DNA of 32,000 nt from Promethearchaeota archaeon. Its GTDB lineage: Archaea; Asgardarchaeota; Lokiarchaeia; Sigyniarchaeales; SOKP01. Of the stretch, positions 14,930 to 30,734 are shown piece by piece; the stretch's first letter is position 1, and the number at the start of each line of letters is the position of its first letter. The notes beneath the pieces are model-generated. The model did no database searches, had not been told where the DNA came from, and worked only from the letters and a program-made list of their open reading frames with translations. Location of the stretch: positions 33,414-65,413 of the forward strand of contig JAUWGH010000011.1 in NCBI GenBank assembly GCA_030606485.1, read 5' to 3'. The translations under genes were made by a program, and so were the position numbers.

Positions 14930-15005
14930 AAAAAATCTTTCATTATTTAATTTGCGGGGCTTAATATACAAAAGAATTGACATATTATCCATTTTGTGGT
15001 TCTTA

Positions 15006-15413
15006 CTAAAAAAATTCAGATAACCTAAGTTCTGTTGCATCTTCACCATCCAAATTAGGTCCTGGAAAGAGAAAAGGGGAAAGTCCAGCTCCCAATCCAG
15101 CTCCTAAACGAGGATATCTGATTGTTGATAGAACTAATATTCGATTTTTGCCCGCAGCCATTATGAGGATTAAGCCATTATCTCCCTCAATCATAATTCT
15201 CTTTAGATTTCCACGAACAACCTCTAAAACCCCACGTTCTCCTAATGAAAATATCGCAGCGGTCATAGCGGCAATTTTTGTATCATCGATCGCCTCGGGA
15301 AAAACACTTACAATAAGGGACCCCTCTATTGAAACAATTGCTCCAGCCTCAACGTCAGGATTGGACTTAACCAATCTTTTTAATTCTCGCTTAAGTGATT
15401 TTAAATCATCCAT
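15006..15413 (-). CDS. roadblock/LC7 domain protein, copy A (long C-terminal tail)
   Basis: VEAGAIVSIEG, IAAMTAAIFSLGER, LKRIMIEGDNGLILIMAAG: MglB/Robl_LC7 pattern. Confidence 0.88.
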   Translation of the reverse strand: MDDLKSLKRELKRLVKSNPDVEAGAIVSIEGSLIVSVFPEAIDDTKIAAMTAAIFSLGERGVLEVVRGNLKRIMIEGDNGLILIMAAGKNRILVLSTIRYPRLGAGLGAGLSPFLFPGPNLDGEDATELRLSEFF

Positions 15414-15544
15414 TAATTTCTCATTGGATCATTATTTCTCAAATTTATATAAAAATAAATTTAGAAGATAAGTTATTTAATAATTGTGATAGGAACTAAA
15501 TAAAATTTATTAATGTTTTATTCAATCTTATTTCCGCAATTTTT
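15089..15544. repeat. ~455-bp dispersed duplication (roadblock gene, upstream region and 3' end of preceding zinc-ribbon gene); partner at 25065-25519
   Basis: Near-identical by eye over the CDS and the upstream intergenic region; offset about 9975. Confidence 0.92.
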
Positions 15545-15627
15545 CGGATCTTTTTATCTTTCTAGAGACTTTAATATCTTTTAGCAAAATTCTCAATATC
15601 ATATTTCATTCAGTACTATCTTTTTCT

Positions 15628-15789
15628 TTATTGCTCAATTTCTTTCGAAGTTTTTATTAAGTTATCTATACCCAACCATGTTGGATGTGTAAAGTGATGT
15701 AGCGTAATTATTGGTTCCTTTCTTGCTTTAAATATGATTTCTACAATTTTTGCATAGTGATCAACAACCTCATAATCATTCTGATCTGA
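15628..15789 (-). pseudogene. glycoside hydrolase family 1 (beta-glucosidase) internal fragment
   Basis: Stop-bounded frame SDQNDYEVVDHYAKIVEIIFKARKEPIITLHHFTHPTWLGIDNLIKTSKEIEQ*; HY..I....EP.ITLHHFT.P.W is the GH1 motif; no start and no remainder of the gene. Confidence 0.75.
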
Positions 15790-15977
15790 TTAAAGAAAGT
15801 CGGGATAATTGAAAAATTTGGAGGATAAAATTATACAAAAAATATTAAAATATTAATTTCATTTCCATTAGACAAAAAATACTTAACAAAAATGTAAGGT
15901 TTATATATTAAAAGATTTTATAGTTCTTTACTTCAAAATATAATTTTAATAAAAATATAATAAGAAAGGTAAAAATT

Positions 15978-16298
15978 ATGCCATATGTTGTTATAAAGAC
16001 TTGGTTTCCAACTAATAAAGCAAATGAAGTTGCAAAAATATATATTGAAGAGCGTAAGAAATATCCTTTTGATAGATCTCTAGGAAAAGAAGTTGTAACT
16101 GCTGTTTCGACAGATGAAAATGGTATAATATCCATGGGTGTTATAGATGTAAAAGAAGGCAAACTTGAAGAAACTCTAGCCCGAGATAATAACATTTTTG
16201 TAATGTACCTTAACATCGAAGGATATAACCGTAAGCAGGAAGTTTGGTCGACTGCTGTAGAAGCCTTGACATTATTAGGAATGAAAGCGCCAGAATAA
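15978..16298 (+). CDS. hypothetical small alpha/beta protein
   Basis: 106-aa ORF with SD-like AAGGT upstream and T-run downstream. Confidence 0.75.
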   Translation: MPYVVIKTWFPTNKANEVAKIYIEERKKYPFDRSLGKEVVTAVSTDENGIISMGVIDVKEGKLEETLARDNNIFVMYLNIEGYNRKQEVWSTAVEALTLLGMKAPE

Positions 16299-16507
16299 TT
16301 ATTTAATATCTAATTTCTTTTTTTTCTTTATCTTTTCCTAATTTATTAGATTTTTTTAAAAAAATTTTTAAGATTTCAAAATTGAACTTTATTTTTTTAT
16401 AAATTTAATTTCAAAAGCAGCTAATAATTTTTTATAAAAAACAATAAATTTACCTAGACCAATAAATATATTTCCACTTTCTATCGAGCATTAACTTTGT
16501 TAGCTAA

Positions 16508-16792
16508 ATAATTATTTTTTTGGTTTCATATTTCCCTACATAACAACTTTCGCAAATATATTGGAAAACATTTATAATTTTAATTTTCAAATCTTTAACT
16601 ATGTCAAAAATATCCAAAAAATTTTCATCCCCAGTAATGAAGGGTTCGCCGAGGGCAGGTAAAATCATTCTGTCTTTACTCATTGTTGTGGCTATCGTTT
16701 ATTTTATAGTAGTTAGTCTGGACGATGGAAGATTTTATTGGTCATTTGTTCCGGTCTTAGTAAAAATCCTTGAAAAAGTAAAAGAGGTGTAA
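16508..16792 (+). pseudogene. ICMT-family shard 3: promoter plus internally deleted mini-ORF (16601-16792)
   Basis: MSKISKKFSSPV joined in frame to MKGSPRAGKIILSLL..VSLDDGRFYWSFVPVLVKIL, i.e. residues 1-12 fused to about residue 73 onward of the intact gene, then truncated. Confidence 0.88.
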
Positions 16793-16797
16793 AATTT

Positions 16798-17583
16798 TTG
16801 GCAGAAATTGCTATTGCATTGTTATCTCCTATCGCTAGTTTTATAGGGAAAATGATAGTAAAGAAAATTAAAAAGAAAATAGACCAAAAATTAATTAAGA
16901 TTAATGTGAAAAGTCCAGATTATAATGGAACAGCAAATCACTGGGTTACCTATCTTGACGAGCGTATCAAAACCGAACAAGAAAAACAATTTCAATATGC
17001 CTATCTTGGAGATGATATCCAAACTTCAATTGAGAAAGATAATAAAGTCTCAACCATAAAAATTCAAGTGCCTAATGTAGATAAGGATGCTTTAAAGGAA
17101 CTTATGTTAAAAAAACAATGGAATAATCAAAATGATCCAATTCATGGAAATGGTGTTTTTAATCTGGCCCTCCCCCAAATTACTCACGCGAATTTAGAAG
17201 GAGATACATATCAAATCCAGTATCTAAATCTATCCTCGATTCCTCTAAATGGTAAATATCTGTTTACTACTAAATTAGAATCCTTAAGTTTTGAAAAATA
17301 TGACCCTGATGAGTTCTATAAACATGGAGGGACCTTTGAAATCCCAATTTATCTAGAAAAATCAACACCAGATTATCATGTTTACCCAATCACACCTCCA
17401 GCGCCAAAAATTCCAGATTATGCTATTAAAACAAAAATCATTAAAGAAAAAATTATCCCATCCATTGAAGAAACTCAAGTTTTTGTATTCTGCCCATTTT
17501 GTGGAGCTAGAATGCCAAAATCTAAAGATCTTAAATTCTGTTTATCATGTGGGAAAAATATTGAACAACATCTTAATTTTTAA
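16798..17583 (+). CDS. hypothetical protein with C-terminal double zinc ribbon
   Basis: GAGGTG SD before TTG; C-terminal CPFCG...FCLSCG. Confidence 0.75.
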   Translation: MAEIAIALLSPIASFIGKMIVKKIKKKIDQKLIKINVKSPDYNGTANHWVTYLDERIKTEQEKQFQYAYLGDDIQTSIEKDNKVSTIKIQVPNVDKDALKELMLKKQWNNQNDPIHGNGVFNLALPQITHANLEGDTYQIQYLNLSSIPLNGKYLFTTKLESLSFEKYDPDEFYKHGGTFEIPIYLEKSTPDYHVYPITPPAPKIPDYAIKTKIIKEKIIPSIEETQVFVFCPFCGARMPKSKDLKFCLSCGKNIEQHLNF

Positions 17584-17602
17584 CTGTTAAGGATTAGTTT
17601 AA

Positions 17603-18514
17603 ATGACAAAAACTGAAAAATTATTATCTCAGGCAAAAAAATTTGAAATAGAACATCAATTTGAAAAAGCTGCTACACTTTATATAAAAGCGGCCCAAAT
17701 ATCGTTAAATAAGGGTAATTTGAAAACAGCTACAATTGGGTTTAGTAAGGGGGCAGATTGCTTATATGGTGCTAGAAAAATCAGCAATGGACTAAAATAT
17801 TCTCAACAGGCTTTAGAAATTATCAATAAATTAAATGATTTGAGTGGAAAAGCCGCTATATTGAATAATATTGGAAGAATATTACGTGAGAGTGATGATC
17901 TTGATGAAGCTCTTATGTACTTTAAACGTGCCTTGGAAATTGACGAACAATTAGAAGACTTTATAGGAATAGGTATCAGATTAACTAATATCGCAGAAAT
18001 TCAAGGCAAAAAGGGAGAATTCAGCGAAGCTCTCAAGAACTATCGAAGCGCTATAGTAGTTGTAGAATATACTGGTGATTTGAAGGTTAACGCCGCTATA
18101 TTAAATAATATCGGACTATTATTACACGAGCAAGGCGAATTTGGCGATGCACTCGAATCTTATCTTAAAGCTTTGGAAATTGATGACTTACTAGGGGATT
18201 TAAGGACAAAAGCTATACATTTAACTAACATTGGAGAGCTTTTAGGTGATATGGGCAGGATCGATGAAGGTCTTGAGCACTGGCAACAAGCTTTAAAAAT
18301 AATGGAAGATTTGGACGAAATTATAGATAAAGTTGCTCTATTAAGCCAATTTGGTGAAAAACTAATTAATAAAGATGATTCCGCAAAAGGTTTTGAATAC
18401 TTATTAAAGGCTAGAGAAATTGCCAATAGTGTGAGAAATCCAAATCAAAAAGCATTTCTTTTAGAAAAAATCAACACAATTTTACGAGATAAAGGATTTA
18501 ATTTTCAAACTTAA
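17603..18514 (+). CDS. TPR protein (SNAP-like N-terminus plus 5 x 40-aa TPR)
   Basis: Repeats L.D...KA.ILNNIG......GE..EAL..Y..ALEI. Confidence 0.9.
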   Translation: MTKTEKLLSQAKKFEIEHQFEKAATLYIKAAQISLNKGNLKTATIGFSKGADCLYGARKISNGLKYSQQALEIINKLNDLSGKAAILNNIGRILRESDDLDEALMYFKRALEIDEQLEDFIGIGIRLTNIAEIQGKKGEFSEALKNYRSAIVVVEYTGDLKVNAAILNNIGLLLHEQGEFGDALESYLKALEIDDLLGDLRTKAIHLTNIGELLGDMGRIDEGLEHWQQALKIMEDLDEIIDKVALLSQFGEKLINKDDSAKGFEYLLKAREIANSVRNPNQKAFLLEKINTILRDKGFNFQT

Positions 18515-20784
18515 TGAAAATGTCAGATTTAAATAAACTTAGGCAATTAGCTCAAAAATTTGAGGGAGAATTCCAATATAATGAAGCTGCTAAACATTAT
18601 TTAAAAGCGGCTGAATTAGATTTAAAAAAAGGCAATAAGAATATCGCTGGAGTGGAATTTAATAGAGCTGCAAAATGTTTATATAACATTGGGAAAATTA
18701 ATGAAGCTTTAAATTATTTTGAACGTGCTCTGGAAATTGCCGATCAAGTCGGTGATTTGGCAGGTAAAATTGTTCTATTAAATAATATTGGAGAAATTTT
18801 TCATAATAAACGTGAACTTGATAAGGCATTAAAATATTTTCAACCCGCCTTAGTAATTGCTGAACAGATAGGTATGCTAGAAGGGAAAACAGCTTTATTA
18901 ACTAATATCGGAAGCATCTTATATGAAAGTGGAAAACTCGATGTAGCTCTCGATAACTTTCAACATGCCTTAAAAAATGCAGAACAGTTAGGGGATTTAA
19001 GAGCAAAAGCCACTCTTTTAATCCACCTTGGATTGATTTTTCGCGATAAGGGCGAGATTGATGAAGCTCTTCGGTCATACCAACGGGCTCTGAAAATTGC
19101 CGACCATCTAAGAGATTTGAGAATAAGTTCTAGTATATTAATCAACGTTGGAAATATATTACATGATAAGGGGAAACTCGACGAATCTATCGAGAATTAT
19201 CAACATGCATTGGAAATTTCTGAACAATTAGGCGATTTAAGGGGAAAAATAACTCCATTAACCAATATTGGGGAAATTTTTCGAGATAAAGGAAAGTTGG
19301 ATGATGCTTTTAAATATTACCAACAAGCTTTGAAAATTGCCGAACAATTAGGCGATTTAGGTGGAAAAGCTGCTCTATTAAATAACATTGGCATGGTATT
19401 TTACAATAGGGGAGAGCTAAAGGAGGCTTTAAAAAATTATCATCGTGCTTTGGAAATTGATGAACAGTCGGGATACTTGAAAGGAAAGGCTATCCGATTA
19501 AATAATATCGGTTTGGTTTTATATGATCAAGGCGAACTTGATAAAGCCTTGAAATACTATCAACATGCCTTGGAAATTGATAAAAAATTAGGAAACTTGA
19601 AAGGAAAAGCCGATCGATTAACCAACATTGGAGAGATACTAGTAAATAAGGGTGAATTCAAGAAAGCATTTGAGTGTTACCAGGATGCTTTGGAAATTGC
19701 TAAAAAATTAGGTGATTTGAAGGGTAAAGCTAATCAATTAAACAATATTGGCTTGATATATCTTGATAAAGGCAAGCTCGATAATGCACTTGAGAATTTT
19801 CAACATGCATTGGAAATTTATGAGCAAATAGGCATCTTGGGAGGCAAAGCAGCTCTATTAAACAATATAGGAACCGTTTTATTTGATAAAAATGAAATCA
19901 GTGAGGCTCTCGATTACTTACAGCGTTCATTGAATTTATTTCAGAAGAGAATTGCAGGAAAAGAATTAGACTTCAAAACTGGAATATTATCTTGTCCAAA
20001 TGCTATTTGTTCGGCAGAACTAGAAATTAAAATAATGGGTATCCAGGGAGCGATAATTGAAACATGTCCCAGATGTAATATCCAATTTTCAGTCTGGATT
20101 GATTCTATAAACTCAAAATATCAAATTGGGATACTTTCTGATGAAATTTTTGAAACAAGAAGTATTACATCGGGAACAATAGAATTCCAAGATCAAGTAG
20201 GAAGGAAAACGGAAACAACTATTTCGGAATGGTTAAAGCACGGAGCACTAACGACAGAAAACATCGCAGTTTGCCATAAAATAAGAAAAGATTTCTTAAA
20301 CTCTTGTACAAATTATTACCAAGCGGCAAGTTTATACCGTGGTCTTGGATTTTTGGAGAAATCGGAGAATATATTGAAAATCCTTGAAGATTTGTTAATT
20401 CATATTGATGAGAAAAATAGGGAAATTTTCGTCCATGAGATTGCCCAGCTTCGGAAAAGAACTTCTGAAAGCTTACGCACAAGAGATTTCTCTTACATCT
20501 TCATTTCGTGCCCAAGTTGTCAGAAAGAACACCGCGTTCAAGCCAGTCCAACTACAATTGCAACTAAAATTTGTACTCATTGCCGCGGAAAATTTTCAAT
20601 CTACTACGATGATAACACGGAAGAATTTTACACCAATATCTTAGAAAACCCAGTGGTTAAGACAAGTATTCGAGATAAGGGGTTGAAACGAGATGTTGTA
20701 AAATTTTGCGCGAGATGTGGATTAAAAGTGGGTGAAATTGCACAATATTGTGCGAGATGCGGTTTAAAAATGTTGAGAAAATAG
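18514..20784 (+). CDS. TPR protein (SNAP-like N-terminus, 10 x 40-aa TPR, three C-terminal zinc-ribbon modules)
   Basis: Ten LGDLxGKAxxLNNIG repeats; CPNAIC..CPRC, CPSC..CTHC, CARC..CARC; TAATG stop/start overlap with the upstream gene. Confidence 0.92.
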   Translation: MKMSDLNKLRQLAQKFEGEFQYNEAAKHYLKAAELDLKKGNKNIAGVEFNRAAKCLYNIGKINEALNYFERALEIADQVGDLAGKIVLLNNIGEIFHNKRELDKALKYFQPALVIAEQIGMLEGKTALLTNIGSILYESGKLDVALDNFQHALKNAEQLGDLRAKATLLIHLGLIFRDKGEIDEALRSYQRALKIADHLRDLRISSSILINVGNILHDKGKLDESIENYQHALEISEQLGDLRGKITPLTNIGEIFRDKGKLDDAFKYYQQALKIAEQLGDLGGKAALLNNIGMVFYNRGELKEALKNYHRALEIDEQSGYLKGKAIRLNNIGLVLYDQGELDKALKYYQHALEIDKKLGNLKGKADRLTNIGEILVNKGEFKKAFECYQDALEIAKKLGDLKGKANQLNNIGLIYLDKGKLDNALENFQHALEIYEQIGILGGKAALLNNIGTVLFDKNEISEALDYLQRSLNLFQKRIAGKELDFKTGILSCPNAICSAELEIKIMGIQGAIIETCPRCNIQFSVWIDSINSKYQIGILSDEIFETRSITSGTIEFQDQVGRKTETTISEWLKHGALTTENIAVCHKIRKDFLNSCTNYYQAASLYRGLGFLEKSENILKILEDLLIHIDEKNREIFVHEIAQLRKRTSESLRTRDFSYIFISCPSCQKEHRVQASPTTIATKICTHCRGKFSIYYDDNTEEFYTNILENPVVKTSIRDKGLKRDVVKFCARCGLKVGEIAQYCARCGLKMLRK

Positions 20785-20820
20785 CAAATTATTAAATAAT
20801 TTGCATAAGATTTGTTAGGT

Positions 20821-21093
20821 TTAACGTTGTTTTAAGAAATCCTCATCCAGCTTAATTTGCTCTTTCATCATTGTTAAGATAATATCGCGCACTTTAAATA
20901 TTTTTGAATCATCATATTGATCCGCTGATATTAAAGCATGAACATATTCTTTATTTTCCGAAACTTTGGAGACTATCGTGGCTACCTTAAACATACCATC
21001 TCTTAATTTATCTGGTTTTTTGCATTTTTGCAAAATTGTAATAGACTTTTTAAGTACTTTAATATCTTCTTTAATATTTTCTAAATTGCTCAA
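20821..21093 (-). CDS. hypothetical helical protein
   Basis: 90-aa ORF filling the gap, TTG start. Confidence 0.55.
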   Translation of the reverse strand: MSNLENIKEDIKVLKKSITILQKCKKPDKLRDGMFKVATIVSKVSENKEYVHALISADQYDDSKIFKVRDIILTMMKEQIKLDEDFLKQR

Positions 21094-21204
21094 TTCTAAT
21101 TCTCACTCTCTTCTTTTTATATAAAATAAAAATGAACTCGGTATTCATTAATCCTTATTCATTTATTAAATTTAAATAAAATTAAAAAATATTTGAATAT
21201 CTAT

Positions 21205-21235
21205 GGTTTAAACTTTAAATTTAAATTTTAAACCT
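21205..21235. promoter_or_regulatory. 31-bp near-perfect palindrome upstream of the LRR gene
   Basis: ggtttaaaa-c-tttaaatttaaa-ttttaaacc: perfect inverted repeat apart from one unpaired C. Confidence 0.5.
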
Positions 21236-21264
21236 CTAAAAAAGATTTTTAGTGAGTGAATTTT

Positions 21265-22560
21265 ATGGAGAAAGTTAAGTATAAAAAATTTGTATATCAT
21301 GTGGAAAATAGGGGGCTAAATTTAAGTGATTTAAAAATTAGTGATATAAGCAAGATTAAAGGACTTGAAAATCTCATGAATCTACAAATATTAGATTTGG
21401 GTGCAAATCAGATTTCTGAAATTGAAGGGCTTGAAAATCTTAAGAATTTACAAGAACTTTACTTTTATAATAATCAAATTACCGAGATTAAGAGGCTTGA
21501 AAATCTTGGGAATTTGAAAAAATTAGACCTTCGAAATAATCAAATAACTGAGATAAAAGGAGTTGAGATGCTCAAGAACCTGCAAATATTAATGCTTTCT
21601 AATAACAAAGGTTCAACTAATGGGCTGGTTATCAAAAAAAATAAAATTTCTGAGATTAAGGGTTTAGAAAAACTCACTAATTTGCAAGAATTATATTTAT
21701 CTCGTAATAATATCTCTGAAATTAAAGGACTTGAAACACTTACGAATTTGCAGAAATTAGACCTTCATTGGAATTATATAAAAGAGATTAAGGGCCTCAA
21801 AAATCTTACAAAATTGAAAACATTAAATCTACAGGATACCCTAATTACTGAGATTAAAGGGTTAGAGAATCTCACGAATTTGCATATATTAGATTTTAGA
21901 GGAAATCAAATCACAGAGATAAAAGGACTCGAAACGCTCATAAATTTGACACGCTTAACTCTTAGTAATAACCAAATCTCTAAGATCAAGGGATTCGAAA
22001 AACTTACAAATTTACAAGAATTATGGCTTGATAGAAATCAAATCTCTGAAATAGAAGGTCTTGAAACTTCCATAAATCTATGGATCTTAAATCTTGGATA
22101 TAATCAAATCTCCGAGATCAAAGGACTAGAATCTCTCACGAAACTTACAACATTTTACCTAAAAGAAAATCAAATCCCTCAAGACTTATTAAATCAATTG
22201 GGTGGTGTAGGTAAAAATGGATTTGCTAAAAGTCCTCAAAATTTGGTAGAATACTGTCGTAAAAAAAGAGAGAAGGAAGAAAAATTGGAAAAGGAATCAC
22301 TCGAAAAAATAAAAAAGATAATTAAAGTATCCACCCGAATTAAACTTGATATGCTTATAGATGCTCTTAAAATGGATACACAAACATTTAACGAAAAAAT
22401 TTTCGAATGGGCAGAAAAATTCGGTTTTACAATTGATGGGGATTATTTAATTACTAATATAGATATGGTTTCAGATTTTATAGATGAATTAGATAAACAA
22501 TTTGCCATATGGGAAAAATCAGAAAGAGAAAAAATCAAAAAATTAAATAATTCGATTTGA
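21265..22560 (+). CDS. leucine-rich repeat protein with C-terminal helical/winged-helix-like domain
   Basis: About a dozen 22-aa LxxLxxLxxLxLxxNQIxEIKG repeats; alternative GTG start at 21256. Confidence 0.92.
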   Translation: MEKVKYKKFVYHVENRGLNLSDLKISDISKIKGLENLMNLQILDLGANQISEIEGLENLKNLQELYFYNNQITEIKRLENLGNLKKLDLRNNQITEIKGVEMLKNLQILMLSNNKGSTNGLVIKKNKISEIKGLEKLTNLQELYLSRNNISEIKGLETLTNLQKLDLHWNYIKEIKGLKNLTKLKTLNLQDTLITEIKGLENLTNLHILDFRGNQITEIKGLETLINLTRLTLSNNQISKIKGFEKLTNLQELWLDRNQISEIEGLETSINLWILNLGYNQISEIKGLESLTKLTTFYLKENQIPQDLLNQLGGVGKNGFAKSPQNLVEYCRKKREKEEKLEKESLEKIKKIIKVSTRIKLDMLIDALKMDTQTFNEKIFEWAEKFGFTIDGDYLITNIDMVSDFIDELDKQFAIWEKSEREKIKKLNNSI

Positions 22561-22668
22561 AACTAAGAATAATGACCCTTATTACTAAATTTAAAATGAG
22601 AATATTTAATTAAAGCTTTTTTAATATTATACACTCTATTTAAACACAAAAAATTAAATAAATAAGAT

Positions 22669-23238
22669 ATGGGAACAGATATCCATTTATTTGTAGAAAA
22701 GAAGGAAAATAATAAGTGGATTTATGTTGGAAAACATGACATAGCTAGAAATTATCCACTCTTCGCAATTTTAGCTAATGTAAGGAATGGAATAAGAAGC
22801 GGAAAGTTTGAGCCAATTTCATATCCAAGAGGCCTTCCTAATAATGTTTCCCCAGAAGTTCGTAAAAGAGCAGATAATTGGATACTTGAGTTTCATTCAC
22901 ATAGTTGGTTTTTATTAAAAGAATTGAATCATTTTGATTGGGATGGAAAAAAAGTGAAATTTAAGGCATATGTGAATAAAATAGGTTATGATAAGTGGAA
23001 AAAAACTGGAAAACCATGGGGAGCAGCACAGTTGGCAGGTGGAAAGATAATTTCACATGAAGAGATGGAAAAATATGACCCAATAAAAAATGGTTATATT
23101 GCCCATACTATGGTGGAATGGGTGCAAACTTATCGTGAATGTTGTATTTATTTTGTTGAAGATTTTTTAAAAGAATTGAATAATATGAGTAGAGAAAATG
23201 GCGAGGATATTAGAATTATTTTTTGGTTTGATAATTAA
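22669..23238 (+). CDS. conserved phage-type hypothetical protein
   Basis: MGxDIH.FVE, RNY.LFA.LA.VRN, PRGLP, HS.SW..LKEL..FDW and RIIFWFDN pattern, recalled from phage hypothetical proteins (unverified). Confidence 0.6.
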   Translation: MGTDIHLFVEKKENNKWIYVGKHDIARNYPLFAILANVRNGIRSGKFEPISYPRGLPNNVSPEVRKRADNWILEFHSHSWFLLKELNHFDWDGKKVKFKAYVNKIGYDKWKKTGKPWGAAQLAGGKIISHEEMEKYDPIKNGYIAHTMVEWVQTYRECCIYFVEDFLKELNNMSRENGEDIRIIFWFDN

Positions 23239-23309
23239 TTCAACTATAAATGATATTGAATATACTGTTCGAAAAAGATTTTCTTGATTATTTAGGACCA
23301 TAATATTAT

Positions 23310-23399
23310 TTAGTTAAAAATTTTCTGTTCCTTTGTTAGTTTGCTTCCGCAATGCTTACAAAATTTTCGACTCTTTATCAATTCTACTGTTTCTTTCAT
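23310..23399 (-). pseudogene. out-of-frame, truncated zinc-ribbon tail of the gelsolin-coiled-coil gene
   Basis: MKETVELIKSRKFCKHCGSKLTKEQKIFN* is homologous to LIKSRKFYKNCGSKLKNRQKVC in 25493-25687; its frame is open back across the A7 run at 23425-23431. Confidence 0.7.
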
Positions 23400-23413
23400 C
23401 ACTATTGTCGTTT

Positions 23414-24322
23414 TTACCGTTTGATTTTTTTCTCTTTTTCTTTAATTTCAATGTTTTTTTTCTTAATTAAGTCTTTTAAATAATCAATCTGACTAGTTTT
23501 TCTCATATTTTCTTCCTTTAAATTAGTAATTAATAGTCTTTGTTTTTTCAACTTCTCTTGTAAATCTCTAACAAGATTATGTACAGGTATTTCCTCCTCT
23601 TTAATCTCAATTATATGACCATTTGATTTAGATCCTTTCTTTCTTTCCTGTTCTAATTGTTGCTGAAGCTGAATTTTTTCTTTTCTAAGTAAACCCATGT
23701 TAATCTTTAATTCCCTATATTTTTTTTCTGTTTCTTCTAATTTCAACTGTAATTTTTTAGCATATGCACGTTTTTTTCCGTACTTATCAATTAGATCATT
23801 TAATTTATTTAATTCTTCTCTATATGAGGATATTGATATTTCACTAATCTCTAAATCCGTTTTGAGGTGTTCAATTTCTCTATTTTTAAAATCAAATTCC
23901 TTTTTTATTTGATTTACCTCAACTCTCAGTTGATCTATGCTTTCCTCAATTTGTTCTTTTAATTCAATTCCTTCTTTTGGTTTTATTTCTTGTTTTATTT
24001 CTATTTTATCAAATTTTTTTGCAAGTTTAATACTTTTACTTCCTTCTATAAACTCAAGAAAATCACGGGGCTCTATCCCTTCGTCTACAGGCACAACTGA
24101 ATACTCCAAACCTACTTGCCCTCTAATATCTTGGCTTTTTTGAGCACCAATAAATTTCTTTCTAACTGATGATTCTGCCCCCTTCCATAACCAAATTGTT
24201 TTATCAGGGGGATCACTGATGATAATATACACTTCAAAAGTCTTCAGGATATCCTTTATATCTTTATCGATTTGTATTTCTTCTATTTCTCCAGTTTCTA
24301 ATACTTTAAATATCCGGATCAT
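23414..24322 (-). CDS. gelsolin-like domain fused to a long coiled coil
   Basis: VYIII...IWLWKGAESSVRKKFIGA..SQ.IR....VDEGIEP.DF gelsolin-repeat pattern in the first ~95 aa, then about 200 aa of heptads. Confidence 0.72.
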   Translation of the reverse strand: MIRIFKVLETGEIEEIQIDKDIKDILKTFEVYIIISDPPDKTIWLWKGAESSVRKKFIGAQKSQDIRGQVGLEYSVVPVDEGIEPRDFLEFIEGSKSIKLAKKFDKIEIKQEIKPKEGIELKEQIEESIDQLRVEVNQIKKEFDFKNREIEHLKTDLEISEISISSYREELNKLNDLIDKYGKKRAYAKKLQLKLEETEKKYRELKINMGLLRKEKIQLQQQLEQERKKGSKSNGHIIEIKEEEIPVHNLVRDLQEKLKKQRLLITNLKEENMRKTSQIDYLKDLIKKKNIEIKEKEKKIKR

Positions 24323-24452
24323 ATTTTATGCCGTTGAGATTATCATAATTTTTTTGAATGTTAATAAGATAAATTTGTTTTTTATCCATCAATGTAAAAA
24401 TGCTAATATAATTTTTAAAATCTTTCCTAATTTTCGTATATCAATAACTTCC

Positions 24453-24974
24453 TTATCTTTTAGATTTCTCATCCAATGCCATTTTTGCAATCCTAGAGAA
24501 AATTTCAGATGCTCCTTCTTTTGAAACAACCGAAGTTTCAATATAGTTCAGTTTAAAATCTTCAATTAATTTCTCAACTTCCTTGTGAGATACAGTAAAA
24601 AAATTGGAATATCTTTTATTTCCCACAAGAAGTATAGGAATACCTACAGCATTCTTCCTAACTAAGTTAATCCAATCAGGCAAATTCTCGAAAGATCTCC
24701 GATCGGCAAAATCGAAAAATAATATCAACCCTTCAGCTCCTTTAACATACTGCGGGAATAAAAATTTGTACTTTTTTTCACTTCTAAAATTCCACAATTG
24801 TAGTTTTACTTTTATATTTGCGATCTCAACATTTTTACTGAAAAAATTAACTCCAATAGTAAGGCTCAGATCCTCCTCAAATAATTTAGGCTTATTAATA
24901 TGACGTGATAAAAGCGCTTTCTTAATCCAGCCCTCGCCTAACATTAATATCTTAAATGTTTCATCAGTCTTCAT
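24453..24974 (-). CDS. Rab/Ras-like small GTPase fold with degenerate nucleotide-binding motifs
   Basis: FKILMLG, TIGVNF, KLQLW, YVKGAEG, FD...SFENL..W, ILLVGNK, YIETS scaffold; G1 GEGWIKKA, G3 WNFRS, G4 NKRY. Confidence 0.85.
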   Translation of the reverse strand: MKTDETFKILMLGEGWIKKALLSRHINKPKLFEEDLSLTIGVNFFSKNVEIANIKVKLQLWNFRSEKKYKFLFPQYVKGAEGLILFFDFADRRSFENLPDWINLVRKNAVGIPILLVGNKRYSNFFTVSHKEVEKLIEDFKLNYIETSVVSKEGASEIFSRIAKMALDEKSKR

Positions 24975-25044
24975 TTAAGATTTTTCCTCCACTCTAGTTA
25001 ATTTAAATATCAAGTCTGAAATTAATCTCTTTTTTCTTCAATAT

Positions 25045-25389
25045 TCAGGTATCAATTAAGAAATCTCCTAATCCAGCTCCTAAACGAGGATATCTGGTTG
25101 TTGATAGAACTAATATTCGATTTTTGCCCGCGGCTATTATGAGGATTAAACCATTATCTCCCTCAATCATAATTCTCTTTAGATTTCCACGAGCAACCTC
25201 TAAAACCCCACGTTCTCCTAATGAAAATATCGCAGCGGTCATAGCGGCAATTATTGTATCATCGATCACCTCGGGAAAAACACTTACAATAAGGGACCCC
25301 TCTATTGAAACAATTGCTCCAGCCTCAACGTCAGGATTGGACTTAACCAATCTTTTTAGATCTCGCTTAAGTGATTTTAAATCAACCAT
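25045..25389 (-). CDS. roadblock/LC7 domain protein, copy B (short tail)
   Basis: Near-identical to copy A through RYPRLGAGLG. Confidence 0.88.
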   Translation of the reverse strand: MVDLKSLKRDLKRLVKSNPDVEAGAIVSIEGSLIVSVFPEVIDDTIIAAMTAAIFSLGERGVLEVARGNLKRIMIEGDNGLILIIAAGKNRILVLSTTRYPRLGAGLGDFLIDT

Positions 25390-25519
25390 TAATTTTTCAT
25401 TGGATCATTATTTCTCAAATTTACTAAAAATAAATTTAGAAGATAAGTTATTTAATAATTGTGATAAGAATTAACTAAAATTTATTAACCTTTTATTCAA
25501 CCTTATTCCCGCAAATTTT
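25065..25519. repeat. second copy of the ~455-bp roadblock duplication
   Basis: See 15089-15544. Confidence 0.92.
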
Positions 25520-25687
25520 ACACACTTTTTGTCTATTTTTGAGTTTGCTACCGCAATTCTTATAAAATTTCCTGCTTTTTATTAACACTTTTGTCTCATT
25601 ATCAATTACTTTTATATTTCTATAGCCTTTTATTTTTTCTATTTCAAAGCCATCTAACGTTTTTATCAGTACATATACCTCGATCAC
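25493..25687 (-). CDS. small zinc-ribbon ORF, probably a 3' remnant (first Cys lost)
   Basis: FYKNCGSKL..QKVCKICGNKVE; GTG start. Confidence 0.5.
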   Translation of the reverse strand: MIEVYVLIKTLDGFEIEKIKGYRNIKVIDNETKVLIKSRKFYKNCGSKLKNRQKVCKICGNKVE

Positions 25688-25997
25688 GTTTTGTTCTATT
25701 TCTCTTTTTATTGGAAAAAATAAGATTTTAATGTTCTTTATATCAATGCAAAATAAAGGTTCGACAAAAATCCGACAGAAATTTAAAATCTCCTTGATAA
25801 AAGAGAGGGGAGACTAAAAGTAAAAAATAAAATTCACTAATTCTACAGCCTTTTGAAATTTTAATTCTAGAAATTGTATCTTCTCTTCATGAAAGGTATT
25901 ATTACATCTTCAACTATTGTATCCTTCGCTTTAAGATTAAAGGCTTTGGATGTTTTAAAATATTTTATTTTCAATAAAAACAAAAGGAGGGGTTAAT

Positions 25998-26555
25998 ATG
26001 ATTACGATAGAAAGTTTTCTGGATTTAAAGAATATTAAAATTCTAATAGATGTTTGCAATATATGTTATTGCCAAAAAACTGATGATGGGAAACCTATTC
26101 TTGCCAACTTAATGTCAGTTTTACATCATTTGATTAAAGAATTAGAAATCCCGAGGCATAATATTATTTGTATTTCGGATCCTGGAGTTGTTAGGTATAT
26201 GGATGATTCGAAAAAGTTCCAAAAAATGATAGATTCTGGAGAGGTCATAAAATCGCCGAAAACGGCAGATGAGTTCATTTTAGGGTTTGCACTTAGTTGC
26301 GACTTCTGTCTAATTATATCTAACGATAAATATAGAGACTATATTAAACAATTACCGAGTGAAGAATGGCTTCAAGATAGGAGTGTGAATTTTATGATAA
26401 TTAATGGTGTAACGGTTTTAAGTCCTAATATCGAATTTGAGAAATTAAGCGGTAGAGTTGGAAAAACTTTTAGTGAAAAAATTAGTGAAAATATTGAAGA
26501 ATTTATTGACATAACTAAATTAGAAAAAATTACGTTAAGTGAAAGAGATGTATAA
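25998..26555 (+). CDS. PIN/NYN RNase domain of the Zc3h12a (Regnase)/PRORP type
   Basis: LIDVCNI, ICISD, ADEFIL, IISNDKYRDY acidic motifs; AAGGAGG SD upstream. Confidence 0.8.
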   Translation: MITIESFLDLKNIKILIDVCNICYCQKTDDGKPILANLMSVLHHLIKELEIPRHNIICISDPGVVRYMDDSKKFQKMIDSGEVIKSPKTADEFILGFALSCDFCLIISNDKYRDYIKQLPSEEWLQDRSVNFMIINGVTVLSPNIEFEKLSGRVGKTFSEKISENIEEFIDITKLEKITLSERDV

Positions 26556-26645
26556 AAAACGCAATATATTTGGTGGGATATTAAAAAAAATAAAAGAAAA
26601 TTAAGAGTAAAATATATTTATAATAAACCTTAATTGGTAAATTTT

Positions 26646-27425
26646 ATGAGTTGGGAGGAAAGAGAGATTTTATTAGTTGCAAAAACCTATCCTGTAAGAA
26701 GTAGATCTCATGGAAATACCGTATGTACTGCAGGGATTTTAGAAGATACAAATGAATGGGTAAGAATTTATCCAATCAGATGGATAAAATATGCTAAAAA
26801 TAATTTAAAGAAATTTGTGCGCTTTAAAGCTCAAATTAAGAAAAATACTTCAGAATATCTACAAAGAAAAGATTCCTATAAAATCAGAGAACCTACAATC
26901 AGAATAACTGATGATAGTTTAACTAAAACTCAAAATAAAGGAGTCTGGCAAGAAAGAAAAAAGATATTATTAAAAACTCTCTCCAATTCAATTGAAACTC
27001 TTAATGAAAAATTTAAGGAGGATAAAACATCATTAGGAATGATAAAACCAATAGCAAATTCAATAGAATTTTTGATTCTTAAACCAGTTGATGAAATTGA
27101 AATTGATGTTGAAAAATCAACTCAATATACCATTTTTGGAGAGAAATTAATAAAAGTTGATAAAATAGAAAATGTATTTAAATATAAATTTAAATGTATT
27201 AATGTTAAATGTTCCACTCATAAAATGATATGTGAAGATTGGGAATTACTACAAGCTTTTAGAAAATTTAGAAAGATATACGATTCTGAAGAACTCGAAA
27301 AACAATTAAGAAATCAATTTTATGAAAAAATGATTAAATATAGAGATTTATATTTTATTGTAGGTACTCATTGGCAATTTCCTAAATTTTTAATAATTGG
27401 ACTTTTTTATCCCCCAAAAAGATAA
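26646..27425 (+). CDS. conserved hypothetical protein, DUF488-associated (dual-OB-like) family
   Basis: AKTYP..S..HGNTVCTAGI....WVRIYPI, SLGMIKP, FKYKFKC....C..H.MICEDWE, LYFIVGT..F.IIGLFYPP. Confidence 0.65.
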   Translation: MSWEEREILLVAKTYPVRSRSHGNTVCTAGILEDTNEWVRIYPIRWIKYAKNNLKKFVRFKAQIKKNTSEYLQRKDSYKIREPTIRITDDSLTKTQNKGVWQERKKILLKTLSNSIETLNEKFKEDKTSLGMIKPIANSIEFLILKPVDEIEIDVEKSTQYTIFGEKLIKVDKIENVFKYKFKCINVKCSTHKMICEDWELLQAFRKFRKIYDSEELEKQLRNQFYEKMIKYRDLYFIVGTHWQFPKFLIIGLFYPPKR

Positions 27426-27438
27426 GAGATTAAATAAA

Positions 27439-28503
27439 ATGAAAATAAAAATTGAAAAAATAATAGTTGGAAAATATAATGTAAGAGAAAAATTTGAACA
27501 AGAATATTTAGAAGAAATAAAAGAAAGCCTAAAAATTGATGGGCAATGGAATCCTATAATTATAAGACCTATAGGAAATGGGAAATATGAATTGATTTCA
27601 GGACATTATCGTTTACAAGCGGCCATAGAATTAGGTTGGAAAGAAATCGAGGCTACTGTAAAAGATATATCAGAAATTAATGCAGATGTATTGTCTTTAA
27701 AAACAAATTTATTAAGATTGAATATGTCTCCAAGAGAACAAGGTAAAGTTATACATAATTTAATAACAAAATATGGGATTAGTCAAAATGAATTAGCGGA
27801 AAAAATAGGAATGAGTCAGAGCAAAATTAGTCAATTATTAACAATTGTATTGAAATTACATAAATCTGTCGTTGATGCTTTAAATTTAAAAACCATAAAT
27901 TATGGAATTGCATCTGTTATTGGAAGTCTTAGTTTAGAACAGCAACCTATTTTTTTAGAAATCATTTTGAATAGTAAAATCTCATCTCCAGCATTAGCAA
28001 CAAAAATAAAGAATAAATTTTTAAATAACACCTTATATACGATTGGATATCAAGGACGAAATTCAGCTAATTTTATTGAAATTTTAGAAAAAAATGATAT
28101 TAAACTTGTCGTTGATATTAGAAGTTCTGCAAAATCAGAAAAAAAACCAGAATTTAATGAAGAAATCCTGAGTCGAGAATTGGAGCGAAATGATATGAAA
28201 TATAAACACTATCCAGAATTAGGTGTTCCATATATACTTCAAGAACCATATAAAGATGGAAAATTTTCATATGAGTGTTTAAAACAATGGTACAATTGGC
28301 ATATCAAAGAAAATGTTGAATTGGAAGAAATAATAAAATTTTTAAAAGATTCGGGACGGTCGGTAATATTATGTATGGAAAGATATGCAAAACCAACGAA
28401 AGAGCAAAAATATGCTTGCCACAGAAATATTCTTGCAGATTTAATTTTAAAATTTAAGGTTTCAGATCCCTTGCTTGAATTTAATAAAAGGATAGATTTA
28501 TAA
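27439..28503 (+). CDS. ParB/Srx-HTH-DUF488 fusion protein
   Basis: PIIIRP..YELISGHYRLQAA (ParB), SQNELAEKIGMSQSKISQLL (HTH), then YTIGY, VDIR, HYPELG, LCME..CHR (DUF488). Confidence 0.85.
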   Translation: MKIKIEKIIVGKYNVREKFEQEYLEEIKESLKIDGQWNPIIIRPIGNGKYELISGHYRLQAAIELGWKEIEATVKDISEINADVLSLKTNLLRLNMSPREQGKVIHNLITKYGISQNELAEKIGMSQSKISQLLTIVLKLHKSVVDALNLKTINYGIASVIGSLSLEQQPIFLEIILNSKISSPALATKIKNKFLNNTLYTIGYQGRNSANFIEILEKNDIKLVVDIRSSAKSEKKPEFNEEILSRELERNDMKYKHYPELGVPYILQEPYKDGKFSYECLKQWYNWHIKENVELEEIIKFLKDSGRSVILCMERYAKPTKEQKYACHRNILADLILKFKVSDPLLEFNKRIDL

Positions 28504-28707
28504 AATTATTTTTAATTTTAATTTATTTTAAAATAAAGATTTTCAGCTTTTTATGAAGATGATACTCATTTCTTTTATTTTCTTTAATCAAAATTGCATT
28601 AAGATTCAAACATTTGTGATCAAATAACTCAAAATCCCTCGTGATAAAGAAATTTTGATATTTTTACTATTTTATCGATTCTATATATATGACTTTTTAT
28701 TAGTATT

Positions 28708-29172
28708 TTAAAAAAAAGAATTATTGGAGCAATTAAAGCATTCTGAGTTTTTTATATCGTTTGCTAATCTACAATTTTCACATATTTTAATTTTTGTGCA
28801 GATATTCTTTTCTATAATTAATATTTTAATCTCAAATTGAATAGTTTTTAAAGCATTATTTAAATCACTTATACATTCTTTACCAATCAATATACCTCTA
28901 ATTCTTTTATTATCCCCAAATTCTTGTCCAATATCTTCCAAATAGCCATTTAATTGTAATAAATGATTAATTTCAAGGGGTTCAATTTTTAATTCGATTA
29001 CAACAATTTCATTTTTTAAAAAAACTATTAAATCGGCAAATCCTGATGGTAGGCGATATTGTGGTATTGATTTTTGATTAAGAAATTGTTTTTCAATCAA
29101 ATATGGATGAGTTTGGTAAAGAGTTTGAATTTCTTTTTCAGTAACAGAATTTTCTTCATCTAAAAAAAACAC
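28708..29172 (-). CDS. NucS-like PD-(D/E)XK endonuclease domain with C-terminal zinc ribbon
   Basis: EKEIQ, GFADLI..IVVIELK, QLNGY, RGILIG; CENC...CFNC. Confidence 0.78.
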   Translation of the reverse strand: MFFLDEENSVTEKEIQTLYQTHPYLIEKQFLNQKSIPQYRLPSGFADLIVFLKNEIVVIELKIEPLEINHLLQLNGYLEDIGQEFGDNKRIRGILIGKECISDLNNALKTIQFEIKILIIEKNICTKIKICENCRLANDIKNSECFNCSNNSFF

Positions 29173-29177
29173 GTTAT

Positions 29178-29783
29178 TTACCTTCCTAAATGCGCTATTG
29201 CTTTATCTTCCATAATTCTTTCGACGATAACATTGACAATTTTTTCCCTTTTACGGAATCTTTTTTCATTTGATTTTAAAATGGAATAAGCGGCTTGTTT
29301 TAAAATTTGGACATCTGGATATCTTTTTAAATCATTTAATTCTTTTCTTAATTGTTCTGGGGGTAACATAAGCCATCTTGAGGTTTGATCTTCAATTCTA
29401 ATCTTTTTTGATACAGAAGGGGCTTTCTTTTTAGGCGGAAGTTTCCTTTTTGGAGCTTTTCTAACAGGTTTAGGAAGTAGTTCTATCAATTTTTTAAGAG
29501 CAATGTTCTTAGATATAGATACTTTTGCTATCTCCTCTTCGATATCTACCCTTTTGGTTTTTTTAACTTGATAATTTAATTTTATTTTTGAAAAATTTTT
29601 TAGATCTGTAATAATTCTAAAATTTTTTTTATCTTTAAAGAAATTTAATATTTTTTCATCAATTTTAACACATAGATTTAAATCCTGTTCCAATTTAATT
29701 AATAAATTATGAATTTGATTGAGATCATAGAACTCTGATTTATTCTGAATTAATAATTTAATCCCATCTATTATTTCAATCAT
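29178..29783 (-). CDS. hypothetical basic protein downstream of parA
   Basis: 201-aa ORF tightly packed between ParA and the nuclease; Lys/Pro-rich linker; GGAGG SD upstream. Confidence 0.75.
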   Translation of the reverse strand: MIEIIDGIKLLIQNKSEFYDLNQIHNLLIKLEQDLNLCVKIDEKILNFFKDKKNFRIITDLKNFSKIKLNYQVKKTKRVDIEEEIAKVSISKNIALKKLIELLPKPVRKAPKRKLPPKKKAPSVSKKIRIEDQTSRWLMLPPEQLRKELNDLKRYPDVQILKQAAYSILKSNEKRFRKREKIVNVIVERIMEDKAIAHLGR

Positions 29784-29816
29784 AATATTTTTAATTGGAA
29801 AAACCCCTCCTTTATT

Positions 29817-30734
29817 TCATTTTGAAATTATATTCAGTATTTCATGACATAGGTTTCTAAATTCCATTGTAGAATCAGAGCGGGGTTTATCAACACAAAC
29901 GGGTAAATATTTACCAGAAGCCTTTTTGATATCAACTTTATTAGTAATTATACTTCTAAATACTATAGAATTTTCATCAACCATGTTTTCTTGTTTAAAA
30001 ATTTCTAATAATCGCCGAATCCTTTGTAATCCATCTTTATGTACATTTATGCGTGTATCCAATAAATTTATCAATATTCCAGCTAATTTAACAGATGCAT
30101 TTTTCTCTTCTCTTTTAATCTCAATCGTTTTGTTTAATGAATTAACTAAGAGTGGAATTCCACTAATAGATAGATAATCAGGAATTGTTGGAATTATAAA
30201 ATAATCTGATGCATATAATGAATTATGGGTAGTTGTATAGATATTTGGAGGACAATCAATAAGTATAAAATCATAATAATCTTTTATTTGTTCCAGAAAT
30301 TTACTAAGAATAGCAAACCTTGATCTTACATAATTAACGATTTTTTGTTCTAATTGCATTAGGTGAGAAGTTGCGGGAAGTAAATCAAGTTGAGTTAATG
30401 GTCTGATTTCTTTTCCTTGAATTGTTCGTCTTACAACTGATTTAATTATTGCAGTTCCAAAATTAAATCTTTTCTTATTTTCATTATCTTCCATTGCATC
30501 TAAAAAAAGTTGATAAATGGTATCGCGATATATATCATTTTCATCTAGTTCATATCCAAATTTTTGTTGATATCTCTTTGGACCCATCAACAATGTAGAA
30601 ACGTTTGCTTGAGGATCCGTATCAATTACTAATACTTTTCGATTTTCTCTTGCGAGTTCTCCTGCAATATTGGCGCAGCATGTAGTTTTTCCCACGCCCC
30701 CCTTTAAATTTATAAAACTAATAATAACGCCCAT
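29817..30734 (-). CDS. parA: ParA/Soj family ATPase
   Basis: Deviant Walker A KGGVGKTT, VIDTDPQAN, ILIDCPP, SDYFIIP. Confidence 0.9.
   Translation of the reverse strand: MGVIISFINLKGGVGKTTCCANIAGELARENRKVLVIDTDPQANVSTLLMGPKRYQQKFGYELDENDIYRDTIYQLFLDAMEDNENKKRFNFGTAIIKSVVRRTIQGKEIRPLTQLDLLPATSHLMQLEQKIVNYVRSRFAILSKFLEQIKDYYDFILIDCPPNIYTTTHNSLYASDYFIIPTIPDYLSISGIPLLVNSLNKTIEIKREEKNASVKLAGILINLLDTRINVHKDGLQRIRRLLEIFKQENMVDENSIVFRSIITNKVDIKKASGKYLPVCVDKPRSDSTMEFRNLCHEILNIISK

Follow-up and report, generated by a model that had tools for sequence, protein, structure and literature searches.

Asgard archaea crawl and reshape themselves via a Lokiactin cytoskeleton, and the question at stake is how small GTPase and roadblock signalling links to it. 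Gelsolins and profilins are considered its main regulators, and in L. ossiferum, Lokiactin co-purifies with five gelsolin homologues (PMC13716822). Calcium is not needed for the Thor protein 1DGelX to bind, nucleate, and sever actin, and a ProGel/actin structure has been solved (PMC7444086, Akil et al. 2020); the GelX architecture is also found in the L. ossiferum protein B35_GelX (bioRxiv 10.1101/2025.11.30.690169). Roadblock proteins regulate small GTPases, as in MglB-MglA and Ragulator-Rag (PMC3199381, PMC3747258). The locus described here lies in a 32,000-nt stretch of archaeal DNA (the window; positions 33414-65413 of contig C13 in genome G000, which comprises 3.75 Mb in 13 contigs at 29% GC). 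In it, a gene for a gelsolin-coiled-coil protein is preceded by genes for a Rab-like pseudoGTPase and a Roadblock/LC7 protein. We consider this locus to be, more likely than not, a young accessory cassette, restricted to one species- or genus-level lineage and derived from a phylum-wide GelX-Roadblock actin-regulator pair.

Four minus-strand open reading frames (ORFs) follow one another in the same orientation (25493-25687, 25045-25389, 24453-24974, and 23414-24322), separated by spacers of 103, 70, and 130 nt. Short as these spacers are, each is long enough that it could house its own promoter. The features on which the argument turns are the following:

25045-25389, minus strand: Robl114, a Roadblock/LC7 protein of 114 amino acids (aa) with a Pfam Robl_LC7 match; a truncated young duplicate.
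24453-24974, minus strand: Rab-like pseudoGTPase of 173 aa with a Pfam Ras match and degenerate G1, G3, G4, and G5 motifs.
24323-24452, minus strand: 130-nt spacer, probably the promoter region of the gelsolin gene, conserved in every context.
24038-24322, minus strand: gelsolin-homology (GH) domain, residues 1-95 of a 302-aa protein, assigned by profile, AlphaFold2 (AF2) model, and Foldseek.
23414-23965, minus strand: coiled-coil region, residues ~120-302 of the same protein, assigned by heptad scan and generic coiled-coil matches.

The arrangement is not an assembly artefact, because an independent ENA scaffold (L069) matches window positions 25301-23452 at 97.9% identity over 1,850 nt. Near-identical DNA is carried by cold-seep and marine-sediment metagenomes, and the closest named protein relatives of the window belong to metagenome-assembled genomes of Promethearchaeota/Lokiarchaeota.

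The Pfam gelsolin model (PF00626), applied to the single 302-aa sequence, scores below threshold (E = 0.016, 15.5 bits against a cut-off of 21). A profile of 45 sequences covering residues 1-105 matches villin (8.9e-24), Lokiarchaeota 2DGel (4.4e-19), and Thor ProGel (5.8e-17) in the PDB. The AF2 model of the domain has a predicted local distance difference test (pLDDT) score of 91.1, and its top Foldseek match is 7c2f_B, the ProGel chain of the ProGel/actin complex (template modelling score 0.88 by the target's length, root-mean-square deviation 1.8 Å); 112 matches reach E ≤ 0.001, and the 50 listed are all gelsolin-family or gelsolin-actin entries. Despite the sub-threshold Pfam score, the predicted gelsolin identity is secure by family profile and modelled fold. 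Beyond the GH domain, residues ~120-302 display heptad patterns in two segments, with a short linker near 228-246 between them, and give only generic coiled-coil matches (KIF21A_4th, SMC).

Both halves of the protein have relatives within the genus. Identity of the GH domain to same-genus GelX is 64-66%, as against 38-53% to that of other genera and families, and the domain branches as the sister of same-genus GelX (Shimodaira-Hasegawa-like approximate likelihood ratio test, SH-aLRT, 88). It also retains the long-helix residues that are invariant in GelX: R54, K56, F57, A60, S63, Q64, R67, Q69, V70, and G71. Coiled-coil residues 129-271 share 70% identity with the first 148 residues of a 401-aa coiled-coil protein encoded elsewhere in the genome (G000:C2:93687-94889), which is therefore the likely donor or sister of the segment. 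That all-coiled-coil gene (L033 3688-4890) adjoins a gene for an FtsX-like permease.

GelX itself has a different C-terminal half. According to alignment and AF2 models, its members, relatives of 265-310 aa, consist of a gelsolin domain, a disordered linker, and a conserved C-terminal X domain of one helix and five strands. A fold search with the full GelX model returned gelsolin-domain matches only and none for the X domain. In alignment A3, the X domain is absent from the window protein, and likewise from its close relatives, the coiled coil replacing linker and X domain. A C-terminal model built from GelX matches all GelX orthologues and none of the four relatives' loci of the window paralogue (L002-L006). 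The order-wide homologues of 265-310 aa were also considered as gelsolin-coiled-coil proteins; this was rejected, since alignment and model identify them as GelX with a globular X domain.

These comparisons show the 302-aa protein to be a genus-level chimera, in which an apparently GelX-derived head is joined to a coiled coil shared with a separate gene. Homologues of the N-terminal domain number 5-10 per genome in 21/21 relatives searched, and the same profiles did not find the gelsolin-coiled-coil fusion in three genomes of the same genus, G001 (100% complete), G003, and G004. One further gelsolin protein of the genome, a 115-aa, single-domain, ProGel-like protein (G000:C2:161056-161400; L034 4057-4401), groups with the window-type gelsolin domain (SH-aLRT 97).

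The 173-aa protein matches Pfam Ras (PF00071) with E = 2.5e-27 and 95.9 bits against a cut-off of 21.6, over model positions 1-159 of 162. Its best relatives in the PDB are Sec4, Rab43, Rab11, and Rab8 (4e-24 to 1e-19), and because these best solved relatives are Rabs, the description 'Rab-like' holds. Alignment to canonical homologues and Sec4 reveals that G1 reads GEGWIKKA in place of GxxxxGK[ST], the second glycine being replaced by lysine and the serine/threonine by alanine. The remaining motifs have fared no better: G3 is NFRS (for DxxG), G4 is NKRY (for NKxD), and G5 is SVV (for SAK). The P-loop is missing in only 3/48 Ras-like ORFs of the genome. The protein is best classed as a pseudoGTPase and not a Rab, and loss of nucleotide binding and hydrolysis is predicted from the motif losses.

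Orthologues of the pseudoGTPase are few: 99% identical in L069, 94% in contigs L004 and L005, and 55% in contig C208 of G002, a genome of the same genus. All remaining relatives are canonical and at or below 41-48% identity, and relatives above 41% occur in only 1/60 genomes of the family. The G002 copy is also degenerate (G1 GEDRIKKE; G3 DFAA and G4 IKSH, both read by eye at the aligned positions), and motif loss therefore predates the split of the two copies. In 5/5 contigs with a copy (the window, L069, L004, L005, and G002:C208), the pseudoGTPase gene lies directly upstream of the gelsolin-coiled-coil gene. Identity between G000 and G002 is ~70% over the GTPase gene and then 90-100% from ~24450 through the spacer and the gelsolin gene, a jump that marks a recombination boundary.

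The roadblock gene has a separate history. Robl114 matches Pfam Robl_LC7 (PF03259) with E = 8e-13 and 48.4 bits against a cut-off of 23, and a profile of its family recovers the solved Roadblock proteins 7f8m and 9jue (~5e-23) as well as CvnB5 (3leq; 8e-10). Four further features bear on its origin:

25493-25687, minus strand: zinc-ribbon (ZnR) ORF of 64 aa, with weak Zn_ribbon_3, DZR, and Zn_Ribbon_1 matches, all under the Pfam cut-offs.
25065-25519, no strand assigned: 456-bp segmental duplicate, found by blastn against 15089-15544 in the window.
23310-23402, minus strand: zinc-ribbon fragment just downstream of the gelsolin gene, the first CxxC half; the second half lies at ~15544.
15006-15413, minus strand: Robl135, a full-length roadblock paralogue (Pfam Robl_LC7 7.2e-13), source or sister of the duplicated copy.

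Positions 25065-25519 are 95.2% identical to 15089-15544 over 456 nt. The duplicate spans the ZnR tail (the last 27 nt of the 64-aa ORF), the spacer, and the first ~108 roadblock codons; its counterpart, ~10 kb from Robl114, is the 5' part of the second roadblock locus with the region upstream. The duplicate ends inside the roadblock ORF at 25065, within ~20 nt of the point at which the GTPase-gelsolin homology to G002 begins (25066). All other members of the Robl114 subfamily are 131-137 aa in length with a conserved C-terminal tail, ending in LSEFF in most. Robl114 lacks this tail, stopping 25 residues early with a new end of 6 residues, and is thus a duplicate truncated at its breakpoint. 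It is 89% identical to Robl135 in full pairwise alignment and 93% over shared domain columns.

Orthologues of Robl135 lie directly downstream of the gelsolin-coiled-coil gene in contigs L002 and L003. The commonest context of the Robl135 type (21 contigs, plus G001 and G002) contains neither a gelsolin gene nor a GTPase gene. A ZnR gene also lies directly upstream of members of the Robl114 subfamily in L049 and L050. Within the window, a double CxxC zinc ribbon is split into halves that are now ~7.8 kb apart, at 23310-23402 and at ~15520-15544 (second half KNCGNKIE*, upstream of Robl135), and between them lie tetratricopeptide-repeat (TPR) genes, a leucine-rich-repeat (LRR) gene, and a 189-aa gene. 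A contig of DNA run X3 joins 23320 to 25523, giving a gelsolin gene, a complete ZnR, and a roadblock gene. Contigs of three DNA runs over 15000-26000 are too short for the roadblock-GTPase junction, which L069 bridges. The rearrangement may have been a tandem duplication or a transposition of the 7.8-kb TPR/LRR block.

Among close relatives, the gelsolin-coiled-coil gene occurs in six arrangements with breakpoints at gene boundaries:

Window: ZnR, Robl114, pseudoGTPase, gelsolin gene, ZnR fragment.
L069: Robl114, pseudoGTPase, gelsolin gene, Robl125, radical SAM.
L004/L005: pseudoGTPase, gelsolin gene, radical SAM.
L006: gelsolin gene, Robl125.
L002/L003: TPR genes, gelsolin gene, Robl135-type.
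G002:C208: ZnR, 112-aa ORF, pseudoGTPase (55%), gelsolin gene; the contig ends inside the gelsolin gene.

The trio of roadblock, pseudoGTPase, and gelsolin genes is thus restricted to the window and L069, a near-identical population in which the truncated Robl114 terminus is shared, and was found in no other genome searched. Elsewhere, the gelsolin-coiled-coil gene occurs without the GTPase gene (L002, L003, and L006) or without a roadblock gene in the stretch read (L004). Its 130-nt upstream spacer (24323-24452) is 90-96% identical in every context, including the contigs that lack the GTPase gene, in which homology to the window reaches 24495 (L006) and 24470 (L002). That the spacer accompanies the gelsolin gene even there suggests that it holds the gene's own promoter.

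A sequence-only reading of this stretch had called a roadblock protein, a G-motif-dead Rab-like protein, and a gelsolin-coiled-coil protein in consecutive minus-strand ORFs with short spacers, and these assignments hold, the gelsolin call by profile and fold. It had further proposed that the three form a signalling-to-cytoskeleton module, in which synteny should be conserved among relatives. Of this proposal, the domain assignments and, on comparative grounds, the link between roadblock and gelsolin genes survive, but the conserved three-part combination largely does not, being confined to the window and one 98%-identical scaffold. As for its suggestion that the combination had not been described, a gelsolin with an extra domain (1DGelX/GelX) was already published (PMC7444086). 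The locus is best described as a lineage-specific offshoot of the Asgard gelsolin-roadblock pair and not as a conserved three-part machine.

That pair is far more widespread. GelX is present, as a single copy, in 116/151 genomes sampled across the phylum. In G000, it belongs to a co-directional array (C7:37414-45469; L032) comprising a YjeF-type gene, GelX, a Roadblock gene, genes for a 721-aa vWA/copine-like protein and for 133-aa and 230-aa proteins, and an actin-family gene, the most divergent of the genome's four. A dedicated Roadblock gene follows GelX at 15/17 loci in four families of the order and at 9/18 loci in other families of the phylum. In family f23 (L064, G146:C2, 4903-6418), the usual Roadblock slot directly after GelX is filled by a canonical Rab-like GTPase with intact motifs (GSGSVGKT, DTAGQ, NKKD, and SAK), with another canonical GTPase 2 kb upstream. 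No description of the GelX-Roadblock(-vWA) array was found in the literature searched.

In the gelsolin-coiled-coil paralogue of the window, three roadblock types adjoin the gene in different strains: the Robl135 type, the Robl125 type, and Robl114. A Roadblock tree places these in another subfamily, not as sisters of the GelX-linked Roadblock. An origin of the roadblock genes in the GelX locus, by co-duplication with the gelsolin domain, is rejected on this ground, and since the subfamilies differ, the gelsolin-roadblock adjacency was re-created and not simply inherited. With 20 Roadblock-domain ORFs in G000 and ~3,500 genes assumed, a roadblock neighbour within two genes would arise by chance in ~2% of cases. 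Because the adjacency recurs, with GelX throughout the phylum and with three roadblock types here, a functional link between gelsolin and roadblock proteins is plausible. The re-created adjacency could reflect either functional attraction or a recombination hot spot in which ZnR-Roadblock units are prone to duplication.

The cassette is put together as follows. Its gelsolin domain was apparently duplicated from the genus's own GelX and is joined to a coiled coil shared with another gene; a pseudoGTPase, its motifs already lost, lies directly upstream of the resulting gene wherever the pseudoGTPase occurs; and the roadblock gene beside the GTPase is a truncated 456-bp copy of the second roadblock locus. 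By analogy with ProGel and 1DGelX, which bind actin, and given the GelX-invariant residues that it retains, the gelsolin domain may bind Lokiactin. The coiled coil would dimerise the protein; with an actin-binding head on each chain, the dimer could anchor, bundle, or cross-link filaments. For the pseudoGTPase, constant linkage and a kept Ras fold are most simply accommodated by a nucleotide-independent adaptor tied to the gelsolin-coiled-coil protein. Roadblock proteins may be regulatory partners of gelsolin-domain proteins in general, with the full-length Robl135 or Robl125 likelier partners here than the truncated Robl114.

Several points weigh against this account. Binding of the three proteins to one another, or to actin, is put forward as a proposal from sequence. 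The sister relation between the GH domain and GelX rests on ~100 columns and an SH-aLRT of 88, which is not decisive, and the recurrent adjacency could reflect duplication-prone ZnR-Roadblock units and not selection for linkage. Ratios of nonsynonymous to synonymous substitution rates (dN/dS), obtained by the Nei-Gojobori method (NG86) and approximate in a genome of 29% GC, are 0.12 for GelX and 0.09 for its Roadblock, as against 0.3-0.5 for the gelsolin-coiled-coil gene, 0.37-0.56 for the pseudoGTPase, and ~0.7 for Robl114/135 (Robl114 compared with its paralogue and with the L002 orthologue). Constraint on the three cassette genes is lower by a factor of three to seven than on the GelX-Roadblock pair of the same genomes, and such relaxed dN/dS, together with a truncated roadblock, equally fits genes drifting towards loss. 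Lastly, the one sign of RNA is weak and consists of two contigs from a hydrothermal-vent metatranscriptome (run X20), which cover 23586-24043 in the coiled-coil part at 95-99% identity. Adapter remnants are present at the ends of these contigs. No RNA contig was found on the GTPase or roadblock genes, and no listed RNA run holds both.

The strongest rival is that the pseudoGTPase and the truncated roadblock are decaying, neutral by-products of local duplication and recombination, with only the gelsolin-coiled-coil gene, or possibly none of the three, being functional. The loss of every nucleotide-binding motif would be expected on that account, as would dN/dS values of 0.37-0.77, a truncated roadblock copy, and a region rich in rearrangement joints and gene fragments; the pseudoGTPase clade is, moreover, very narrow and fast evolving, with 55% identity within the genus as compared with ~95% for the adjacent gelsolin gene. 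Nevertheless, none of the copies seen has a broken pseudoGTPase ORF over a synonymous divergence (dS) of ~0.6, dN/dS stays below 1, and the position of the gene directly upstream of the gelsolin gene has outlasted the divergence of its sequence. The Ras match over the whole domain argues that the fold is maintained, and Robl114 of L069 has the identical new C-terminus. Neutral decay is unlikely as an explanation of the locus.

The chain proposed by the sequence-only reading, in which a roadblock dimer binds a dead GTPase scaffold coupled to a coiled-coil gelsolin acting on actin, draws on the co-orientation of the trio with spacers of 70-130 nt, on a GGAGG ~11 nt ahead of the GTPase ATG, and on the established role of roadblock proteins as small-GTPase platforms. 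Roadblock-GTPase fusions are known in Asgard archaea (PMC10933270). In G000, a 338-aa protein (C6:89222-90235) is matched both by a Roadblock model (residues 5-127) and by a Ras-like query, and looks like a fusion as in MK-D1 (Tran et al. 2024). The order of Robl114, pseudoGTPase, and gelsolin gene is repeated in L069, where a second roadblock gene lies downstream, and the canonical GTPase in the Roadblock slot of family f23 points the same way. Against these stands the confinement of the trio to one 98%-identical population, in which the roadblock beside the GTPase is a breakpoint-truncated duplicate, minus the conserved C-terminal 25 residues and with dN/dS ~0.7. In addition, the stretches read around the pseudoGTPase orthologues of L004 and G002 contain no roadblock gene. 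The gelsolin gene, for its part, keeps a conserved upstream spacer of its own and is also found where there is no GTPase, and Asgard small GTPase genes are generally not in operons with roadblock genes (Tran et al.). The chain as a whole is decidedly unlikely.

A more specific version, that the pseudoGTPase docks on both the roadblock dimer and the gelsolin coiled coil to give an actin-regulating complex permanently 'switched on', is highly unlikely. If true, it would give pseudoGTPase scaffolds a precedent in archaea, observed just as it came into being, and would mean that the phylum-wide gelsolin-roadblock pair is able to recruit GTPase-fold subunits. A complex prediction for the trio (two gelsolin-coiled-coil chains, two Robl114 chains, and the pseudoGTPase) speaks neither for nor against binding, since the score was as high in a control in which another chain took the place of the gelsolin protein as in the real complex.

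A non-cytoskeletal role in a hypervariable, conflict- or defence-type island, in which repeat-protein sensors and nucleases change places from strain to strain and the GTPase, roadblock, and coiled-coil proteins would act as switches or effectors, is barely credible: the surrounding repeat-protein and nuclease genes, relaxed constraint, and cassette-like recombination at gene boundaries between strains would suit it, but no mobility gene was seen around the cassette, the GH domain retains residues invariant in the actin-linked GelX family, and the contexts in L004, L069, and G002 consist of unrelated housekeeping-type genes (radical SAM, hydrolase, PCNA-like).

A repeat search of 23200-25800 gave weak short repeats only and no flanking direct repeats of the kind that mark a mobile element. 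The cassette is surrounded by genes for a WD40 propeller protein of 301 aa, for two TPR proteins of 303 and 756 aa, and for an LRR protein of 434 aa at 13676-14581, 17603-20784, and 21256-22560; in L002 and L003, the TPR block is on the opposite side of the gelsolin gene. An ORF of 189 aa at 22669-23238, which converges on the gelsolin gene, is matched by no Pfam model. On the other flank, positions 25998-30734 encode a NYN/Zc3h12a-like RNase (185 aa), a 263-aa protein without assignment, a ParB_N-HTH-DUF488 fusion (368 aa), a NucS-C-like nuclease (154 aa), and a ParA/MinD-like ATPase (305 aa).

For the link between signalling and the cytoskeleton, this locus supplies no conserved answer, and because of its narrow distribution and relaxed constraint, its bearing on general Asgard biology or eukaryogenesis is limited. 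It indicates that these genomes put gelsolin domains to use in new architectures, in this case combined with a coiled coil, that gelsolin-domain genes come repeatedly to lie beside roadblock genes, and that a Rab-like protein can lose its nucleotide site yet stay tied to a gelsolin gene. It also offers three small, expressible proteins with which contact between roadblock or GTPase-fold proteins and the actin machinery can be tested.

Several described systems place a Roadblock-fold gene beside a Ras-superfamily gene, as the window does: MglA-MglB, Ragulator-Rag, and the Asgard operon of a LAMTOR1-like Roadblock, a Rab-like GTPase, and DENN (Liu et al., bioRxiv 10.1101/2020.10.19.343400). Roadblock dimers are known to serve small GTPases as GAPs, GEFs, or platforms. 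The GTPases of those systems cycle nucleotide, whereas that of the window is without G1, G3, G4, and G5, and the roadblock-GTPase adjacency in the window arose at a duplication breakpoint. Pfam scans of the neighbouring ORFs found no DENN, RomR/X, or Ragulator-like partner. The Streptomyces conservons (CvnA-D: kinase, Roadblock CvnB, DUF742, and Ras-like CvnD) likewise have a Roadblock gene beside a Ras-like gene, and CvnB5 is among the profile matches of Robl114; the window, in contrast, has no histidine kinase or DUF742 gene in the Pfam scans of its neighbours, and its GTPase is dead. By gene content and motifs, the locus is best regarded as not being an MglA/MglB-type switch, an Asgard Roadblock-Rab-DENN operon, or a conservon.

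Eukaryotic pseudoGTPases, such as CENP-M and the pseudoGTPase domains of p190RhoGAP, have kept a Ras-like fold while losing the motifs and are presumed to act as scaffolds. The pseudoGTPase of the window differs from these in being archaeal, stand-alone, Rab-like, very young, and fast evolving.

The closest resemblance is to GelX and 1DGelX, which, like the window protein, possess one N-terminal GH domain followed by a non-gelsolin C-terminal part. In GelX and 1DGelX, this part is a disordered linker and an X domain, whereas in the window protein it consists of ~180 residues of coiled coil. GelX is, furthermore, phylum-wide, single-copy, and strongly constrained, whereas the window protein belongs to one genus-level clade and is under relaxed constraint. 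The GelX-Roadblock(-vWA-...-actin paralogue) array shares with the window a gelsolin-domain gene beside a Roadblock/LC7 gene. In the array, the gelsolin gene is followed by a dedicated Roadblock and there is no GTPase; the window locus has roadblock genes of another subfamily, one of them upstream and truncated, and an inserted pseudoGTPase, and no vWA or actin-family neighbour. Set against these systems, the roadblock part of the locus is an ordinary, damaged family member, and the gelsolin part adds a new architecture to the Asgard mini-gelsolins already known.

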